Virus record (IMG/VR): IMGVR_UViG_2909298281_000006
Span: 1 to 37,935 of that record
Origin: a virus
Taxonomy: Duplodnaviria > Heunggongvirae > Uroviricota > Caudoviricetes
Length of the DNA: 37,935 nt
Strand: one strand, 5' to 3'
Shown: in pieces, positions 1-36,939 of the stretch
How positions within the stretch are numbered: position 1 is the stretch's first letter
Layout: every line of letters begins with the position of its first letter
The notes under the pieces: model-generated
Seen by the model: only the letters and a program-made list of their open reading frames with translations
Told to the model about the DNA's origin: nothing
Databases searched by the model: none
Program-made: the position numbers and the translations under genes

Positions 1-1005
1 TTAATCCCCCGTGGACACTGCGTGGACACTCACGCCACCTTTCAGCGGATTAAGGGCCACCGCATCCTGCAGGTAATCCGGTGCAAAATGTGCATATGCC
101 ATTGTTTGCTGAATGGTTGCGTGACCAAGAATCTTCTGAAGTGCAATAATGTTTCCTCCGTTCATCACAAAATGGCTGGCGAACGTATGCCGCAGCACAT
201 GTGCAGCCTGGCCTTTTGGTAAATCGGGCTTAACTCTTTTCAGCGCCAAGCAGAATTCCCGGTACTTCACCTCAAACAAGCCGCCTGTTTCTCTGGTTTT
301 GATCGCCTCACAAACTGCCTGCGAAATTGGCACTGTTCTTTTTCGGCCATTTTTGGTTTCAAGAAACGTTACACGGTTATGAACTATCTGTTCACCACGA
401 AGCTTACAAGCTTCACTCCAGCGCGCCCCTGTGCTTAAACACAAAAGCGCAACACGCCAGTAGTCGCCCTCCAGTGTATCGAGCAATAGCGCTACTTCCT
501 TCTGGGACAGGAAAGCCATTTCTCGTGGAGATACATAAAGAATAGAAATCCCCCTTACCGGATGCTCTGCATCCCAGAGGCCTATTTTCTTCAGTACGGT
601 AAACATTCCGGATAACCGATTCATGTATCTGTTAGCAGATGACGGTTTCAATCCATCAGCTATCTTTTGAGAACGCCACGCGATAATTTTCAGCTTATCA
701 AGATCCACAGCCTGCATATCAGCGCCAAGCTCATTGATTATGTTGCGCAGTTGTTTTCGATCTTCTTCAGCCTTACGCCTGTGCTGGCCGTGATACATCC
801 ACCACAACTCAAGCAAATCATTTAGCGTTCGACGATCACGGTAGCCCTGTATATATTCCCGCTTTTCAGCGTTCGCCATGATGTAGCGTTCAGTGGCCAC
901 CGCTACCGATTTTTTGTCAAATACCTTACGCACGCGCTTTCCCTTGCGTCCGTTCGGCCTGATGTCCAGCAAATAACGACCATCTTCGAGCTTCTTAATC
1001 GACAT
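1..1005 (-). CDS. int: P2-family tyrosine integrase
   Basis: ORF track 1..1020 starts at TTG; the ATG at 1005-1003 gives MSIKKLEDGRYLLDIRPNGRKGKR, closely matching the remembered P2 Int N-terminus. C-terminal LCLSTGARW...HVLRHTFASHF...LGH...YAHF catalytic region. Window begins exactly at the stop codon. Confidence 0.9.
   Translation of the reverse strand: MSIKKLEDGRYLLDIRPNGRKGKRVRKVFDKKSVAVATERYIMANAEKREYIQGYRDRRTLNDLLELWWMYHGQHRRKAEEDRKQLRNIINELGADMQAVDLDKLKIIAWRSQKIADGLKPSSANRYMNRLSGMFTVLKKIGLWDAEHPVRGISILYVSPREMAFLSQKEVALLLDTLEGDYWRVALLCLSTGARWSEACKLRGEQIVHNRVTFLETKNGRKRTVPISQAVCEAIKTRETGGLFEVKYREFCLALKRVKPDLPKGQAAHVLRHTFASHFVMNGGNIIALQKILGHATIQQTMAYAHFAPDYLQDAVALNPLKGGVSVHAVSTGD
11..28. 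repeat. Left copy of an 18-bp direct repeat GTGGACACTGCGTGGACA (partner at 36755..36772), inside the int 3-prime end
   Basis: Read directly: 11..28 GTGGACACTGCGTGGACA versus 36755..36772 GTGGTCACTGCGTGGACA, 17 of 18 identical. Confidence 0.5.
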
Positions 1006-1101
1006 CGCGAAGCCCTCCAATGAACCGCTCTACAATTTCTCCAGCCTCTTTCCAGCAATAATCAGACCAGACAAAAAGCAGGTCTAACCAGTTTTCTGGC
1101 C

Positions 1102-1537: not shown

Positions 1538-1825
1538 ATGAGCGAATCAGAGCTTGAGGGGTTCATTCAGGTAGCACCATATCCACTTGAAGCGGTGCCA
1601 TATCAACTATTTGCCAAGATGATTGGTCGCAAAGAATCAACCGTCAGAACCATGATTGACGCTGCAAAGTTACCAACGATTGACTTTGTGAAACCAGGTT
1701 CAGTGAAGACGCGAGCATCAGAAAACTGGGTATATCTGCCAGCATTTAACGCAGGTATGCGCAAAGCATTTTTTGATCAGCCGAAAGAGCGCCGCGACGC
1801 ATGGTTGCTCTGGCTGGGTCTTTGA
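1538..1825 (+). CDS. cox: Cox excisionase / early regulator
   Basis: 95 aa; AVPYQLFAKMIGRKESTVRTMIDAAKLP...NWVYLPAFNAG...RRDAWLLWLGL matches the remembered P2 Cox pattern. AAGGAGA SD before the ATG. Confidence 0.85.
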   Translation: MSESELEGFIQVAPYPLEAVPYQLFAKMIGRKESTVRTMIDAAKLPTIDFVKPGSVKTRASENWVYLPAFNAGMRKAFFDQPKERRDAWLLWLGL

Positions 1826-1836
1826 CGAGGATTTTT

Positions 1837-2178
1837 ATGAGACAACAACGTAATTCACGCTTTCGTAATGGTGCTGAACGCCACGCTAACCGTTTCGCTA
1901 CCAGTGCATCACGCAGCAACATCCGCTACAGCCTGAGCGATACACACGCAACGCCGGATGGCTACCCTGTAAAACAAATCGGCGAGCACACCTGGCTGAT
2001 TGAGAAAGCTGGAATTGTGGTCCACAAATGCCCACGCAATCCGTTTACCGGAAACCGCATTTTTGCATTGAGCTGCGGCGACAATCAGTTTGGACAGGAT
2101 TTCACATTATACGAAGCTCTTCGCACGGTTGATCGTCTGCTTCGTGGGCAAAGTTTTATTAAACAGGCTGACTTATAA
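1837..2178 (+). CDS. Hypothetical early protein
   Basis: ATG at 1837 preceded by GAGGA; 113 aa; position equivalent to the P2 small early ORFs. Confidence 0.5.
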   Translation: MRQQRNSRFRNGAERHANRFATSASRSNIRYSLSDTHATPDGYPVKQIGEHTWLIEKAGIVVHKCPRNPFTGNRIFALSCGDNQFGQDFTLYEALRTVDRLLRGQSFIKQADL

Positions 2179-2188
2179 CAGGTGCTTT

Positions 2189-2467
2189 ATGACCAAAGAG
2201 TATGCACAAGGTGTATTTATCCGTTTTATTGATTTTCGCGGTGAACTGTTATTACGTGCATCAGCTATTGATGCTGTAGCCCAGGCAGAAAAAAAAGCAG
2301 TTACTCACGTTTATGCGAACAACGCACAACTGATCGTGGAGCTTCCGTACCAGGCTGTACGTGAAGCCATTAGCGAAGCTGAAAAGGCACGTCAGATTAA
2401 TAGCGATGAACCATACATCGAAATTATCTGCATGGATTCAAAAGCAGAAATCCAGAAGGCAGATTAA
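2189..2467 (+). CDS. Hypothetical early protein
   Basis: ATG at 2189 (internal Met of track ORF 2090..2467) preceded by AGGTG; 92 aa. Confidence 0.5.
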   Translation: MTKEYAQGVFIRFIDFRGELLLRASAIDAVAQAEKKAVTHVYANNAQLIVELPYQAVREAISEAEKARQINSDEPYIEIICMDSKAEIQKAD

Positions 2468-2478
2468 AGGGCGTTGCA

Positions 2479-2583
2479 ATGGACCAGGAATACAAAACTC
2501 TCGTTAATAAAGCACTTGAGCGCTTTCATTTTCGCTTAAACACGTCAGGCCCCACGCTGAACACGCAGCCCATGATTCATTAG
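2479..2583 (+). CDS. Small early ORF (34 aa), possibly the 5-prime part of a frame-disrupted gene continuing to 2720
   Basis: ATG 2479, stop TAG 2581-2583; a start-less ORF in the -1 frame continues from about 2520 to stop TGA 2718-2720. Confidence 0.3.
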   Translation: MDQEYKTLVNKALERFHFRLNTSGPTLNTQPMIH

Positions 2584-2716
2584 CGAGGGCTATCAGAAGT
2601 CTTTATGACGTAGCTTTTTACGCTGACGATTTGGATGCGATTAACGAGCTTTCCGAACTCGTCTGCGCCGCAGAATGCGGAGAGCGCATTGAACCGTATA
2701 AGCTGGGGAATATCGC

Positions 2717-2830
2717 ATGAGTATATTTATCTCATGGCTTGTTCTGATTATTTCGGTGGCCTGCGCCATTGGGATTATGCGAATTATTCATTCAGTAAAA
2801 AAGATTGAACGCTTTTTCACTGACGAATAA
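2717..2830 (+). CDS. Small hydrophobic protein (37 aa)
   Basis: ATG 2717 overlaps the preceding TGA (ATGA); MSIFISWLVLIISVACAIGIMRIIHSVKK has one predicted TM helix. Confidence 0.35.
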   Translation: MSIFISWLVLIISVACAIGIMRIIHSVKKIERFFTDE

Positions 2831-2922
2831 CAGCTTAAATAAAACACCAGATTAAACCCGAAAACCTGAAAACCATCCGCATTCGCGGAGGTATTCGCAC
2901 ACATAAATAACGGAGATATAAA

Positions 2923-3333
2923 ATGAACGCAAAAGAAGAAGGTATTATCAGAGCACTGAAAGAAATTTCAAAGACAGAAAACGAAGTAGCGAAAAAAGCC
3001 GTGGCAAATGCACATATGGACGTCGCAATCCACACACTGATAGTCGCAAGAGTCACGGCAGAAGCAGCCGAAATTATCGCAAAACAGGATGCTGAACTGG
3101 TGGTTCTCAGAACACAACCAGTCACCGGACTGGATTTATCTAACACCGGACGCCTTATTTACACAATTGGCTCGGAGCTACAGCGATACACCATTATCGC
3201 CGGATTACAGGATAAATACCTGATCACTCCGCACCCCATAAGGGAGTCAGAGATTCTGACAAATCTCCGCCTGATAGAGCGCTCTCAAGTTGCATTCATT
3301 GATGACGCCCAACACACCGTATTTAACGCATAG
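2923..3333 (+). CDS. Hypothetical early protein (136 aa)
   Basis: ORF with GGAGA SD 8 nt upstream of the ATG. Confidence 0.55.
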   Translation: MNAKEEGIIRALKEISKTENEVAKKAVANAHMDVAIHTLIVARVTAEAAEIIAKQDAELVVLRTQPVTGLDLSNTGRLIYTIGSELQRYTIIAGLQDKYLITPHPIRESEILTNLRLIERSQVAFIDDAQHTVFNA

Positions 3334-3356
3334 GGTTACTGGACAAAGGGGGCGCA

Positions 3357-3560
3357 ATGGCAATTAAGCGTTTTTCCGTCATTCGTTTCACCTCCAGAGG
3401 GCGTGAATACGAAGTTGACGAACGGCTGATTAAAACGCTCGACCGTCACCGTTCGCAACCTGACGCGCATCACATTTATCTCACTGACGACACTTACTTC
3501 TGCGCCACCAACGTGGTGCAGGTGAATCTTATCAGACTGGTACAGGAGCCACGCAGATGA
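3357..3560 (+). CDS. Hypothetical protein (67 aa)
   Basis: ORF with AGGGGG SD; stop overlaps the next start. Confidence 0.5.
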   Translation: MAIKRFSVIRFTSRGREYEVDERLIKTLDRHRSQPDAHHIYLTDDTYFCATNVVQVNLIRLVQEPRR

Positions 3561-3823
3561 CCATTCTGGACTACATCGCTACTCATCCGGGGTGTAGCGG
3601 CGGAGAGATCGCCGCAGCACTGAATACTCCAACCACAGCCATTAATGCTGAGTTACGCCAACTTTGGCGCGGCGGCTTAGTCATCAGAACAAACCGCAGC
3701 ACAGGTGGTCGCGCTCGCAAAACAGGAGGCCAGGCTTCTTACCACGTAAACCCGATGCCGTTCGGGTGTAGCAATCCACTTACTCACATGTTTAACCAGC
3801 TACTGAAGGAAGCCAGAGCATGA
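3557..3823 (+). CDS. Putative winged-helix DNA-binding protein (88 aa)
   Basis: ILDYIATHPGCSGGEIAAALNTPTTAINAELRQL resembles wHTH regulators; overlapping stop/start coupling with neighbours. Confidence 0.5.
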   Translation: MTILDYIATHPGCSGGEIAAALNTPTTAINAELRQLWRGGLVIRTNRSTGGRARKTGGQASYHVNPMPFGCSNPLTHMFNQLLKEARA

Positions 3824-4119
3824 GCACCATCAACCACCAGAAGCTACGCGAACTGGCATTTGCCCTGCAACGAATGGCAACGCCTCAAAAATTACTGGCA
3901 TTTCGCGCAATGCTCTCGCCGTCTGCTGTGCTGGCACTGCTGAATGAGCTGGAGCACGCCAGAACCACAGCTCCTGCCATTCGCCTGACACTCCATCATG
4001 AAATCGCTGATTTCTGCGCACCACTGGGTTCGCCCGGTGAACCAGAAACGCCGGAAGCAATGCAACGAGAGCTACTGCAACGCATCGACAAGGTTTTTGA
4101 TTTTTTCCTTAACCAGTAA
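3820..4119 (+). CDS. Hypothetical protein (99 aa)
   Basis: ORF translationally coupled to the upstream gene. Confidence 0.5.
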   Translation: MSTINHQKLRELAFALQRMATPQKLLAFRAMLSPSAVLALLNELEHARTTAPAIRLTLHHEIADFCAPLGSPGEPETPEAMQRELLQRIDKVFDFFLNQ

Positions 4120-4130
4120 AGGACCGCGAT

Positions 4131-4223
4131 ATGAACAAAAAGACCTGGTTTCGCGCATACATGTGGGCGCTGGTATGCGTCCTCATCTCTATCATTCTGT
4201 ATGCAGGACTGCTCCCCGAATGA
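4131..4223 (+). CDS. Tiny hydrophobic protein (30 aa)
   Basis: ATG 4131 after AAGGA; MNKKTWFRAYMWALVCVLISIILYAGLLPE, single TM. Confidence 0.3.
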   Translation: MNKKTWFRAYMWALVCVLISIILYAGLLPE

Positions 4224-4333
4224 TCTCATCAGACAGCTCCTTCCTGGTATTGCTGGGCATTTTCATTGCCATGCTGTACCCGGCAGGCGTTGTTCGCCTT
4301 TTCAGTAAGTACATCAAGGAAATCAAACAATGA
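4220..4333 (+). CDS. Tiny hydrophobic protein (37 aa)
   Basis: ATG 4220 overlaps the upstream stop; MISSDSSFLVLLGIFIAMLYPAGVVRLF; stop overlaps the SPFH gene start (ATGA). Confidence 0.35.
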   Translation: MISSDSSFLVLLGIFIAMLYPAGVVRLFSKYIKEIKQ

Positions 4334-34672: not shown

Positions 34673-34933
34673 ATGTTCCGTTGTCCGCTTTGTGGCGCAT
34701 CTGCCCGTATCCGCACCAGTCGTCCGGAAAATGATTCAAACACCGTGCGGCAAAAGTATTACCAGTGTAACAATCTGGAATGCGGCGTATGCTTCTCAAC
34801 ACTGGAAGCTTTCCATAAATTCACATCAAAACACGCCTCCGGCGTTCACTCTTCAGAAGATATCCCGTGGCATGATCTGCCAGCTTCACACAGGGGAAAC
34901 AATCAGATGAGTTTGCCTTTATCTCAGAATTAA
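34673..34933 (+). CDS. ogr: Late gene transcriptional activator, zinc-finger Ogr/Delta family
   Basis: MFRCPLCGASARIRTSR...YYQCNNLECGVCF resembles P2 Ogr (MFHCPLC...HQCQNVNC); AGGGAGG SD. Confidence 0.85.
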   Translation: MFRCPLCGASARIRTSRPENDSNTVRQKYYQCNNLECGVCFSTLEAFHKFTSKHASGVHSSEDIPWHDLPASHRGNNQMSLPLSQN

Positions 34934-34993
34934 CAGGCAGAATTGCCGGAGTAACAAAAAAGCGATAGATTACGCGCGGGTGCCTTTCGGCTG

Positions 34994-35206
34994 ATGGTCG
35001 GAGGGAATACCCGAAGGCCAGATGTGGAAAGGCCCCGGAAAACATCCCTGTTTAACCGAGGCCCTAACCGCATTACCTTGACAAGTGAAAGGTTAGCGCC
35101 TCTCCGAAAAAGGAGCAAGTGCTATGTCGCAAAAATCGCTTACGGCCATCACGTTCTGCGTGACGGCAATCCTCATCATCTGGATGCTGCACGGTTCGCT
35201 GTGTGA
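34994..35206 (+). CDS. mok-like overlapping reading frame (70 codons) upstream of and overlapping the hok-like gene
   Basis: ATG 34994; 70-codon ORF ending inside the hok-like gene in another frame, mirroring the mok/hok arrangement. Confidence 0.3.
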   Translation: MVGGNTRRPDVERPRKTSLFNRGPNRITLTSERLAPLRKRSKCYVAKIAYGHHVLRDGNPHHLDAARFAV

Positions 35207-35263
35207 AATACGGATGAGTTTCTGGGGAGCGGAGTTTGCGGCGTTCTTACAGTGTAAGCAGTA
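35123..35263 (+). CDS. Hok/Gef-family type I toxin (46 aa)
   Basis: MSQKSLTAITFCVTAILIIWMLHGSLCEIRMSFWGAEFAAFLQCKQ: N-terminal TM then SLCEIR and EFAAF, the Hok signature (cf. Hok ...KSLCEIRYRDGHREVAAF...); GGAG 8 nt upstream. Confidence 0.65.
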
Positions 35264-35441
35264 AGGAAACCGCGACGGGGAGCAATCCCCCGGTCAATCA
35301 GTTGCCAGAGTAAGGTCGATAAGGCATCCTGTCTCATTCTATACCAGCTAATCAATTGACACATATCAATAAAAAGCCTGATAAAATCAAAATGTTTTGT
35401 TACAAATGTCAGCTAGTAGAGAGCCAAAGGAGGCAGATTAT

Positions 35442-35774
35442 ATGGCATTAATCAAATGTCCTGAATGCCAGAAAGAGGTGATCGATTCAGTATTGTCTTG
35501 CCCTGCTTGTGGCAAACAACTGAAAAAACTTAAACGTTCATTTTTTGGAGAACTCATTAAGTATTTTTTCATATTATTTAATATTTTTATAATCTACACG
35601 ATTTGTGTTGGGCTAAGAGAGGTTGGTGAAATAATAAACAACGCCACATCCGATGCCGAAAAAGCCGGTACAGTTATTGGTACGGGCTTAGGTTTAATTG
35701 CTATTGGAGGCTTATGGGTTATTGGCAATATCATTATCGGAAATTTAGTATTTCTTACTAAACCAAAGGGATAA
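35442..35774 (+). CDS. Zinc-ribbon membrane protein (110 aa)
   Basis: ATG 35442 after AAAGGAGG; CPEC...CPACG zinc ribbon followed by two hydrophobic helices; AT-rich. Confidence 0.55.
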   Translation: MALIKCPECQKEVIDSVLSCPACGKQLKKLKRSFFGELIKYFFILFNIFIIYTICVGLREVGEIINNATSDAEKAGTVIGTGLGLIAIGGLWVIGNIIIGNLVFLTKPKG

Positions 35775-35778
35775 CAAA

Positions 35779-36672
35779 ATGAAAAATATGATTATTTCTA
35801 TAGGTGCATCATTTATATCAATTAGTGTGCTACCTGCTCACGCAGCAACTGAGCATAATAACTTTAAGTCATCACTCCAGTGCCGAGCAATAGAAAATAA
35901 TAAAGAAAGACTTTCTTGTTATGATAAGTCAATACAACCGACTCGAACGACAGTTGCTGAAAAATTCGAAAGCAGAGATCAATGCCCTGATGAGAAAGAT
36001 GATGACAGACGTTTATCTTGTTATGACCGTTTTTTTTCTCCAACATTTACTCCGCCTGTAAGCTCAAAATCTAAATCGAAACAGCTAGTAACAACAGAGG
36101 CTCAGCAACCAAATCTTTCTGAGATATCTAAATGCCGAGCAGAAACCGATAAAGAAACTAGAGTAAACTGCTACGATAAACTATTTCCACAGGAAAAAGT
36201 TGCGCAATCTAAATCAAAATTAGAGAAAGCCACAGACACAGGAAAATGGCACACATCCATTACTACATCGCCAATTGATGATTCGAAAAATGTAATTTTA
36301 TCGTTAGAAAGTGATGATTATATAAGAACTCCATTTGGAGAAGCGGTTACCCCTACTCTGTTTATAGCTTGCCGAGAAAAGAAAACCGAAGTATTTCTTA
36401 ATTGGGATGTATATTTAGGCCTTGAACAAACCAGCATGCTGTATCGCCTTGATAAACAGAAAGCAGTTGAGCGAAACTGGCTAGTATCTACAGATACAAA
36501 GGCTGTTTTTTATAAAGGCAATGACATTAACTTCATCAGAAAACTAGCCAACTCAAACAAAATGTATGCAAAAATAACCCCTTATAATGAAAGCCCTGTA
36601 AGTGCAACTTTCAATTTAAACGGCCTGTCAACCACGCTAAAACCGCTTCAAGAAGCCTGTAACTGGAAATAG
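35779..36672 (+). CDS. Secreted protein with three Cys-containing repeats
   Basis: Signal peptide MKNMIISIGASFISISVLPAHA; three repeats C-x7/8-R-[LV]-x-C-Y-D-[KR] (RLSCYDK, RLSCYDR, RVNCYDK); AT-rich. Confidence 0.6.
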   Translation: MKNMIISIGASFISISVLPAHAATEHNNFKSSLQCRAIENNKERLSCYDKSIQPTRTTVAEKFESRDQCPDEKDDDRRLSCYDRFFSPTFTPPVSSKSKSKQLVTTEAQQPNLSEISKCRAETDKETRVNCYDKLFPQEKVAQSKSKLEKATDTGKWHTSITTSPIDDSKNVILSLESDDYIRTPFGEAVTPTLFIACREKKTEVFLNWDVYLGLEQTSMLYRLDKQKAVERNWLVSTDTKAVFYKGNDINFIRKLANSNKMYAKITPYNESPVSATFNLNGLSTTLKPLQEACNWK

Positions 36673-36772: not shown

Positions 36773-36939
36773 TGCGCCGATACAAATCCTTTTATATCAA
36801 AAAGTTAAATCAACATCTTTTTCATCAACAAGGATTTTCACGTTTGTGTTACCTGTATGAGACGAGAGTTAACCGGACAAGTGTGCCATAATCTCGCGGC
36901 CAGGCATACTTGCGAAGATTTCAGGTATAAGGATACGTA

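Follow-up and report, generated by a model that had tools for sequence, protein, structure and literature searches.

The locus immediately right of ogr in this DNA is, with a probability that we put at about 87%, a hok/sok-type type I toxin-antitoxin module: accessory cargo of a P88-like prophage that is integrated at the 5' end of pdxB in Escherichia coli and has the module between its ogr and attR. The window (the whole stretch analysed, 37,935 nucleotides) is a segment of an E. coli chromosome with a P88-like (P2-family) prophage. The toxin gene is real, and the system is of a known kind and a known member of it: it is annotated in RefSeq, its peptide is catalogued in Hok cluster 72, and the toxicity of the peptide has been assayed. 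Only the missing canonical mok leader frame is unusual. To what was known we add the location of a Sok-like gene, the boundaries of the mRNA, the finding that the Rfam threshold misses this subfamily, and the lack of a canonical mok. The initial annotation had proposed a Hok/Gef-type type I toxin under antisense-RNA control, and this proposal is now supported by a profile match, by a full-length, below-threshold match of the leader to the Rfam sok model, by the toxicity of an identical peptide and by comparative evidence for Sok. Coordinates of all features are given in Table 1.

Table 1. Features of the hok/sok-type module and neighbouring cargo genes, in positions of the window
Feature	Coordinates	Strand	Details
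Predicted hok promoter	34943-34971	+	-35 TTGCCG 34943-34948, 17-nt spacer, -10 TAGATT 34966-34971; predicted start at about G34978
Predicted full-length hok mRNA (conserved module)	34978-35329	+	about 352 nt; from comparison of 38 unique loci
5' tac-like element	34978-34992	+	GGGUGCCUUUCGGCU; pairs with the 3' fbi-like element in MFE and centroid folds
70-codon 'mok-like' frame	34994-35206	+	+2 relative to hok; ORF present, overlaps the hok start
Predicted Sok-like antisense RNA	35022-35082	-	about 60 nt; 5' tail 35082-35064, hairpin arms 35063-35056 and 35038-35031, UUUCC tail
Target of the predicted Sok 5' tail	35064-35082	+	most variable segment of the module; mean column entropy 0.70 bits
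Predicted Sok promoter	35090-35118	-	-35 TTGCTC 35118 to 35113, 17-nt spacer, -10 TAACCT 35095 to 35090, 7 nt, G 35082
Stem enclosing the hok ribosome-binding site	35094-35124	+	UAGCGC 35094-35099 with GUGCUA 35119-35124 (including the A of AUG); MFE folds
hok toxin ORF, HokA-like, Hok cluster 72	35124-35264 (including stop)	+	46 aa; Pfam match, RefSeq identity
GC-rich 3'-UTR hairpin	35274-35295	+	GACGGGGAGCAAUCCCCCGGUC; helix 14, 98.5% of cells paired, 3 compensatory pairs
3' fbi-like fold-back element	35314-35329	+	GGUCGAUAAGGCAUCC; core GGCAUCC 35323-35329; pairs with the tac-like element
Zinc-ribbon membrane protein gene	35442-35774		cargo between the hok module and attR
VasI/TagO-like protein gene	35779-36672		cargo between the hok module and attR

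A Hok/Gef-family toxin gene

The toxin ORF translates as MSQKSLTAITFCVTAILIIWMLHGSLCEIRMSFWGAEFAAFLQCKQ, with a hydrophobic stretch read from the sequence at about residues 6-23 near the N-terminus, followed by SLCEIR and EFAAF. Its ATG stands 8 nt 3' of an AAGGAG Shine-Dalgarno (SD) sequence at 35110-35115. The initial annotation had described a 46-aa frame with a good SD, an N-terminal hydrophobic segment and the same two motifs; all are present, and its coordinates (35123-35263) were off by one base. It had also suggested a search with the Pfam Hok_Gef profile. The peptide matched PF01848 (HOK_GEF) over residues 7-44 with 29.9 bits (E = 4.1e-7), above the gathering score of 22 bits.

The best NCBIfam match was the HokA equivalog NF007290, with 34 bits against a cutoff of 89, and the ORF therefore belongs to a distinct HokA-like subfamily and is not HokA. 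Both cysteines are hard-coded in K-12 hokA and in the present gene. The peptide is identical to RefSeq WP_000078916.1 ('Hok/Gef family protein'), which is annotated on a RefSeq E. coli chromosome with 99.8% identity to the window across the region. Among 29 homologues from Escherichia, Salmonella and Klebsiella, 13 columns are invariant, including C27 and C44, and variation in the ORF is greatest at third codon positions, intermediate at first and least at second positions. These sequence comparisons indicate purifying selection on the Hok frame.

The peptide is also listed, as 72_1621 in the 'high-abundance cluster' 72 (plasmid LRP137), in Table S2 of a 2026 survey of Hok diversity (Escalera-Maurer et al., bioRxiv 10.1101/2025.08.07.668861). 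In that preprint, 42 of 45 Hok constructs were toxic in E. coli upon arabinose induction, and 72_1621 is not among the three non-toxic ones (19_179, 60_1482 and 69_1540). The toxicity on overexpression that the initial annotation had asked about is thus already on record for an identical peptide, as that of an overexpressed coding sequence behind a foreign SD. The survey dealt with coding sequences only and left mok, Sok and mRNA structure aside, so the RNA anatomy of the present locus is additional to it.

In phage records the present gene goes under the label 'MokW-like host killing'. We considered whether the gene is hokW and rejected this identity: HokW is a 51-aa Gef-like protein (MKQQKAM...; Takada et al. 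2021, PMC8621323) and a different paralogue, and the label is annotation transfer only.

Genomic context and distribution

The gene ogr occupies 34673-34933 (Pfam Ogr_Delta, 52 bits) and ends 10 nt before the predicted hok -35 element. On the other side, similarity to prophage-free K-12 begins at 36819, within the first ~23 nt of pdxB, which places attR at about 36819-36841. The module had been described as lying right of ogr, next to the prophage end. The first part holds, and the module is inside the prophage, but about 1.5 kb and two cargo genes separate it from the right end (attR).

The order ogr, hok, zinc-ribbon gene, TagO-like gene, flk is the same in the near-identical RefSeq chromosome. 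The block from ogr to the TagO-like gene is also found in phages PhiR44_2 and 500465-2, and a remnant of it is carried on ETEC plasmids. P88-like phages (P88 gp52) share the position after ogr, and the order gpD, ogr, hok recurs in P88 and in divergent Salmonella P2-like prophages, with the chromosomal junction coming next in the Salmonella loci. A further type of Salmonella prophage also has hok as its final gene, ahead of chromosomal fieF/pfkA. In Stx phages a cluster-72 copy is present at a separate locus, with DNA that is ~82% identical.

A 401-bp region of the locus was matched in 1,750 of 5,426 complete E. coli genomes, about a third, with up to 9 copies per genome. Full-length Hok homologues were found in Escherichia, Shigella, Salmonella and Klebsiella. 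A search of genome contigs with an alignment as the query gave only 7 loci, several of them on apparently contaminated assemblies. Enrichment of Hok genes in prophages has already been reported.

The predicted hok mRNA module and its fold

Forty-four unique full-length loci, 66-100% identical, were aligned first, and 38 unique predicted mRNAs in a second step. The majority of IMG/VR loci extend only 3 nt past the hok stop codon and could not be used for the 3' UTR, which left the 38 full-length unique sequences. A generic scan of 34850-35480 for sigma-70 promoters and terminators found nothing. Both promoters of the module were found only through homology to curated loci combined with conservation. 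The hok promoter matches 8 of 12 consensus positions, just under the threshold, and was missed by the generic scan for this reason; the Sok promoter was missed because its hexamers are weak. In nearly all aligned loci a TAGAWT -10 element is kept 6-7 nt before an invariant GGGTGCC, and the flanks farther upstream are unrelated. We treat the hok promoter and the transcript start as predictions from sequence and conservation.

The 38 unique loci share a module that runs from GGGTGCC to GGCAYYC, with a length of 334-356 nt and unrelated flanks; between-locus similarity stops directly after the fbi-like element. The 3' motif GGCAYYC is the complement of the 5' motif GGGTGCC. The minimum free energy fold of the predicted mRNA had a z-score of -4.87 and closed 34978-34992 onto 35314-35329. 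In the consensus structure, which was derived from the same 38-sequence alignment that was used to assess covariation, there are 88 pairs with 98.7% of cells paired, and 14 compensatory pairs were counted, compared with 6.2 +/- 1.7 in shuffled alignments (0/500) and 1-6 in slid controls.

In 38/38 sequences the 7-bp core of the tac/fbi duplex is formed. Each of the 21 distinct combinations of tac and fbi ends gives a duplex of 13-18 bp, with energies of -21.5 to -29.6 kcal/mol. The duplex of the window contains one G.U wobble and, at -21.9 kcal/mol, is the weakest of the set. In a co-evolution test cognate ends were barely better than non-cognate ends (-24.9 vs -22.8 kcal/mol). Since the core is invariant, it supplies conservation and not covariation; the pairing as a whole is supported by conservation and by the module boundaries, with little covariation.

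Within the stem that encloses the hok ribosome-binding site, an anti-SD sequence, CUCC 35102-35105, pairs with GGAG 35112-35115 of the SD. The outer part of this stem (helix 7) is paired in 99.6% of cells over the 38 sequences, and a hairpin at 35031-35063 is likewise part of the consensus fold. The first hok codons (35127-35140) form a long helix with an invariant 3' coding segment (35231-35244), which accounts for the synonymous sites there that never vary. By analogy with the R1 hok mRNA, the GC-rich hairpin in the 3' UTR is likely to be the point at which 3' exonucleolytic trimming would stop. When 3'-trimmed RNAs were folded, the 5' end swapped its partner to GGAAAGGCCCC, as in the Rfam model, and the probability that the SD is unpaired was 0.23-0.33 throughout.

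The leader (34978-35137) gave a full-model match to Rfam RF01794 'sok' with E = 1.6e-8 and 46 bits, below the gathering score of 59. Relatives in the subfamily scored 38-57 bits, with the match at the same position in all of those tested, compared with 118 bits for hokC, 110 for hokB and 87 for an R1-like copy. On these scores the hok leader is judged to be homologous to RF01794 but divergent. The window variant is without ~86 bp that are present after the fbi-like element in close relatives, and there was no terminator call downstream of that element in the window. The true 3' end of the mRNA may for these two reasons differ from the predicted one.

A predicted Sok-like antisense gene

The initial annotation had seen no Sok-like promoter by eye, and the generic scan likewise gave none; anchoring on sokC, sokB and R1 did reveal one. 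On this comparison, the minus strand carries a predicted Sok-like antisense gene, with RNA ends as given in Table 1. Complementarity of the antisense RNA to 34980-35060 had been expected; the predicted target is instead about 35022-35082.

The Sok promoter is positionally homologous to those of R1, sokB and sokC, and its -35 element overlaps the hok SD. R1, sokB, sokC and the window share one layout: a -35 TTGNNN lies over the complement of the hok SD and is separated by 17 nt from a -10 element, a G start comes about 7 nt further on, and some 20 nt of tail then lead to a GC hairpin that is followed by a U-rich tail. Within the subfamily the geometry is strict, and 38/38 unique loci have TTGNNN or TTTACT, exactly 17 nt, TAACCT or TATCCT, 7 nt and then G. 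The Sok-like RNA likewise matches the layout of the curated K-12 sokC and sokB RNAs and of R1 Sok, and it folds with -29.9 kcal/mol and a z-score of -3.7.

The hairpin of this RNA is more stable on the antisense than on the sense strand (-19.3 vs -12.8 kcal/mol), and this was true of 38/38 sequences, comprising all 14 distinct variants. The antisense hairpin is stronger because a sense C.A mismatch reads as an antisense U.G wobble. Selection on an antisense terminator would be expected to give such an asymmetry. The segment targeted by the Sok 5' tail varies most within the module, with a mean entropy of 0.70 bits compared with 0.11-0.21 in the hairpin stems, the promoter core, tac and fbi. 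This variability would be consistent with diversification of antisense specificity among paralogous copies.

The leader lacks a canonical mok frame

A 70-codon frame that overlaps the hok start in another reading frame had been compared to mok. The frame is present exactly at 34994-35206; the likeness to mok is otherwise poor, as the frame does not begin where mok canonically does and is closed in 24/66 unique relatives, most of the divergent lineages among them. Its ATG at 34994 has no SD and lies inside the 5' stem, 78 nt 5' of the canonical mok start; in the Salmonella group this codon is CTG. A GTG within the frame, at 35024, follows AAGG, is located under the predicted 3' tail of Sok and is a better candidate start, and TTG 35078 is a further possible one. 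The +2 frame is open through the hok SD in 42/66 unique sequences, all of them from the E. coli clade of the window. No canonical-start ORF extends to the hok SD in the remaining 24, among them P88, 500465-2, the Stx-phage copy (L003) and most Salmonella loci. In such closed-leader loci, either all three frames meet a stop ahead of the hok SD or there is no canonical start after the stops. A few divergent loci have just one isolated start without an SD: TTG at -38 in another frame (Klebsiella L097), TTG at -46 (L104) and GTG at -28 (S. diarizonae L015).

R1-like hok, hokC and hokB have an ATG at -57 or -58, 7-8 nt past a conserved GAGG, in a frame that leads into hok. No member of the present subfamily has a start codon at this position. 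We also considered two other forms of mok, and both were rejected. In K-12, mokA and mokC extend hok in frame at the N-terminus; here a stop closes frame 0 at -27 or closer in 67/67 sequences, and no start follows it. The closing stop is TAG at -30 in 61/67 sequences, the window among them, and it lies within the Sok -10 region. Non-canonical starts (AUU, AUA or AUC) at the canonical mok position are unconserved, and in most lineages stops precede the hok SD.

Lineages in which mok is closed keep the toxin and every RNA element, and the most economical reading is therefore that the subfamily does not rely on mok. The frame at 34994-35206 is probably not a functional mok, judging from these alignments, although the frame that begins at GTG 35024 may conceivably have a mok-like role specific to its clade. 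Without a conserved mok leader ORF, translational control is probably mok-independent.

In R1, Hok can be made only if mok is translated as far as the hok SD. Set beside this requirement, the lack of a canonical mok start here is a point against our overall reading of the locus.

Comparison with known systems

The present locus resembles R1 hok/mok/sok in its Hok/Gef toxin, the tac/fbi pairing, the sequestered hok SD, and a predicted antisense gene that has its -35 over the hok SD, 17 nt between its promoter hexamers and a terminator in the form of a GC hairpin; its leader matches RF01794 over the full model, below threshold. It differs from R1 in the toxin (46 aa vs 52), in the score of the leader (46 bits vs 87 for the R1-like copy), in having no ATG at -57, no conserved mok and no terminator directly past fbi, and in being prophage-borne where R1 is plasmid-borne. 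The curated RNAs of K-12 sokB and sokC have the same layout as the present Sok gene. Toxin family membership, the toxicity of the identical peptide, the full-model similarity of the leader RNA to RF01794 and the conservation and covariation of RNA elements are each documented here or in the cited work.

A prophage-borne hok/sok type I system has been described in Stx2 prophage Sp5 (Takada et al. 2021, PMC8621323). This hokW-sokW pair requires RNase III and Hfq and assists lysis and phage release. After addition of mitomycin C the Sok RNA vanishes and Hok precedes endolysin, and deletion of the pair halves phage release (PMC8621323). The likeness to the present locus lies in the kind of system and in its carriage by a prophage; the toxin, as noted above, is another paralogue.

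Proposed mechanism and alternative explanations

The transcripts, their ends, their processing, the dependence on RNase III and the biological role at this locus are what we infer for the following model. A weak promoter just past ogr would give the ~352-nt hok mRNA, which would be inert as long as its 5' and 3' ends are paired through tac and fbi and the SD and AUG are buried in the local stem. Slow 3' trimming up to the GC-rich hairpin would free the 5' end, and the refolded mRNA would become both translatable and able to bind the antisense RNA. The short-lived Sok-like RNA, made from 35082 to about 35022 from a promoter over the hok SD, would pair with the leader and lead to destruction of the mRNA, probably by RNase III. 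When the supply of Sok stops, be it by loss of the element, by shut-off of host transcription caused by a phage or by prophage induction, the 46-aa Hok would be made, would insert into the inner membrane, and the cell would be killed or lysed. Expression of ogr in lysogens has been reported for a P2-like Salmonella prophage in a prophage transcriptomics paper whose data include no homologous hok locus. With this expression, 10 nt between ogr and the hok promoter and no terminator between them, read-through from ogr into the hok leader is possible.

One alternative is that the locus is a canonical, mok-dependent hok/mok/sok system, in which the frame at 34994-35206, or the part of it from GTG 35024, is translated, ribosomes open the SD stem and Sok blocks the leader ORF. 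The requirement for mok in R1 would lead one to expect this, and so would the open frame that overlaps the hok start and reaches the hok SD in 42/66 sequences, together with a GTG that follows AAGG and lies under the Sok 3' tail. We nevertheless think it distinctly unlikely. By our estimate the ~19 extra codons would stay open by chance in ~40% of cases, the ATG at 34994 has the defects described above, and every member lacks the canonical start that R1-like hok, hokC and hokB have, while the 24 sequences with no ORF into the hok SD retain the toxin and all RNA elements. The missing mok could also be taken as a sign of decay, such that the locus encodes a potentially toxic peptide but the native module is silent, as has been argued for the chromosomal hok loci of K-12, and has no current function. 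The G.U pair that weakens the fold-back of the window variant and its lack of the ~86 bp and of any terminator that relatives have after fbi would agree with a relic, as would the report, as cited in bioRxiv 10.1101/2025.08.07.668861, that chromosomal hokA, hokB and hokC are unable to mediate post-segregational killing. This we regard as improbable, for the codon-position bias and the 13 invariant residues speak of purifying selection, conservation with compensatory changes extends to the promoters, the hairpin, the SD stem and tac/fbi, and the module occurs in viable phages, of which P88 is one, in about a third of complete E. coli genomes and, at a matching position, in Salmonella prophages.

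A further alternative accepts a functional module and concerns only its biological role, which would be help in lysis and phage release upon induction and not addiction or abortive infection. The only prophage hok/sok that has been studied, hokW-sokW, points this way through the effect of its deletion on phage release (PMC8621323), and the position of hok 10 nt past ogr, an activator of late genes, with no terminator between, may allow lytic read-through to swamp Sok. The transfer is by analogy only, as HokW belongs to another, Gef-like type and to a lambdoid phage, and R1 hok/sok has been linked to phage exclusion and plasmid addiction (as cited in bioRxiv 10.1101/2025.08.07.668861). The sequence does not discriminate among roles. 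We consider an exclusive role in lysis possible but somewhat unlikely; stabilisation of the prophage or abortive infection, which the initial annotation had put forward, is plausible, and prophage retention, abortive infection and help in lysis are all compatible with the data. For the locus itself we retain the reading as a hok/sok-type type I module.

Implications

We tentatively suggest, at a little under even odds, that the slot between ogr and attR of P2-family prophages is the preferred home of Hok cluster 72 and that this cluster is naturally mok-less. Translation of Hok would then be gated only by RNA refolding (release of tac/fbi and the SD stem) and by Sok-triggered decay, with no coupling to a leader peptide, and the fast-evolving target of the Sok 5' tail would insulate copies within one genome from each other. 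For annotation, the Sok-like RNA and the full mRNA module can be added where they are currently unannotated, and the 'MokW-like' label of phage records is misleading. Should the absence of mok prove true, this abundant cluster would offer a natural case for asking whether the hok family can do without the leader-peptide coupling that R1 requires.

Long-range pairing within the hok reading frame

The reading frame of hok, the 46-aa Hok/Gef toxin gene, itself contains a 12-bp helix in which codons 2-6 pair with the segment that encodes AEFAAF. The DNA GCGGAGTTTGCGGCGTTCTTACA is invariant, synonymous sites included, and the helix accounts for this invariance.

Features within and around the hok module (window coordinates unless a locus is named)
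Feature	Position	Strand	Remarks
Long-range helix in hok ORF	35127-35140 with 35231-35244	+	12 bp; paired in 100% of cells, 38 sequences
Zinc-ribbon membrane protein	35442-35774		110 aa; cargo gene
VasI/TagO-like protein	35779-36672		297 aa; Pfam VasI 85.9 bits
STnc540, Salmonella locus L101	2795-2992	minus	Rfam RF02082
STnc540, Salmonella locus L105	2808-2989	minus	Rfam RF02082

Cargo genes and possible transcription downstream of hok

The interval between hok and attR (35442-36672) holds two cargo genes, for a zinc-ribbon protein and for a VasI/TagO-like protein with three repeats of the motif (L/V)(S/N)CYD(K/R). Phages PhiR44_2 and 500465-2, as well as ETEC plasmids, carry both genes together with ogr-hok; both are missing from P88. 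The VasI/TagO-like gene would represent a type VI secretion-associated protein carried as a moron of a P2-like phage.

A junction (35329/35330) lies directly after fbi, the 3' fold-back element predicted to pair with the 5' end of the hok mRNA. About 86 bp are absent there in the window, in the related locus L001 and in the ETEC plasmid copy; they are present directly 3' of GGCAYCC in PhiR44_2 and 500465-2. P88 has a canonical intrinsic terminator 22 nt 3' of its own fbi. No plus-strand terminator was called in the window between hok and flk, the gene that follows TagO. Thus, hok transcripts may read through into the cargo genes. The GC hairpin of the hok 3'-UTR also scores as terminator-like on the minus strand in the related loci L002 (2135-2158) and L005 (2134-2157), with the tail CGGTTTCCTT, and in these relatives it might block transcription arriving from downstream. 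At the equivalent site of the window (35274-35295), where the hairpin is slightly different, a minus-strand terminator was not called.

Integration site and distribution of hok

Similarity to prophage-free K-12 begins within the first ~23 nt of pdxB (36819-36841), which places the integration site of the prophage at the pdxB 5' end, with attR a duplicate of the pdxB start. The window starts at the stop codon of an integrase-like ORF (1-1020, minus strand), and attL lies beyond it. In two Salmonella loci the sRNA STnc540 (172-178 bits) is found just past the hok module and adjoins ihfA at the prophage junction.

The genome contig search also returned hok loci L010, L011 and L014, from assemblies that bear the labels Planococcaceae MAG, Vagococcus sp. 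and Xanthomonas pisi. Their hok proteins are 72-98% identical to the query, and enterobacterial contamination probably accounts for these contigs. Locus L006 (positions 1787-4250), from E. coli plasmid p120899_146 (NZ_CP025917.1), holds a prophage remnant of the kind found on ETEC virulence-type plasmids, comprising a gpD fragment, ogr, hok, the Zn-ribbon gene and a split TagO, which adjoins a group II intron reverse transcriptase. Prophage-type hok therefore occurs on plasmids too.
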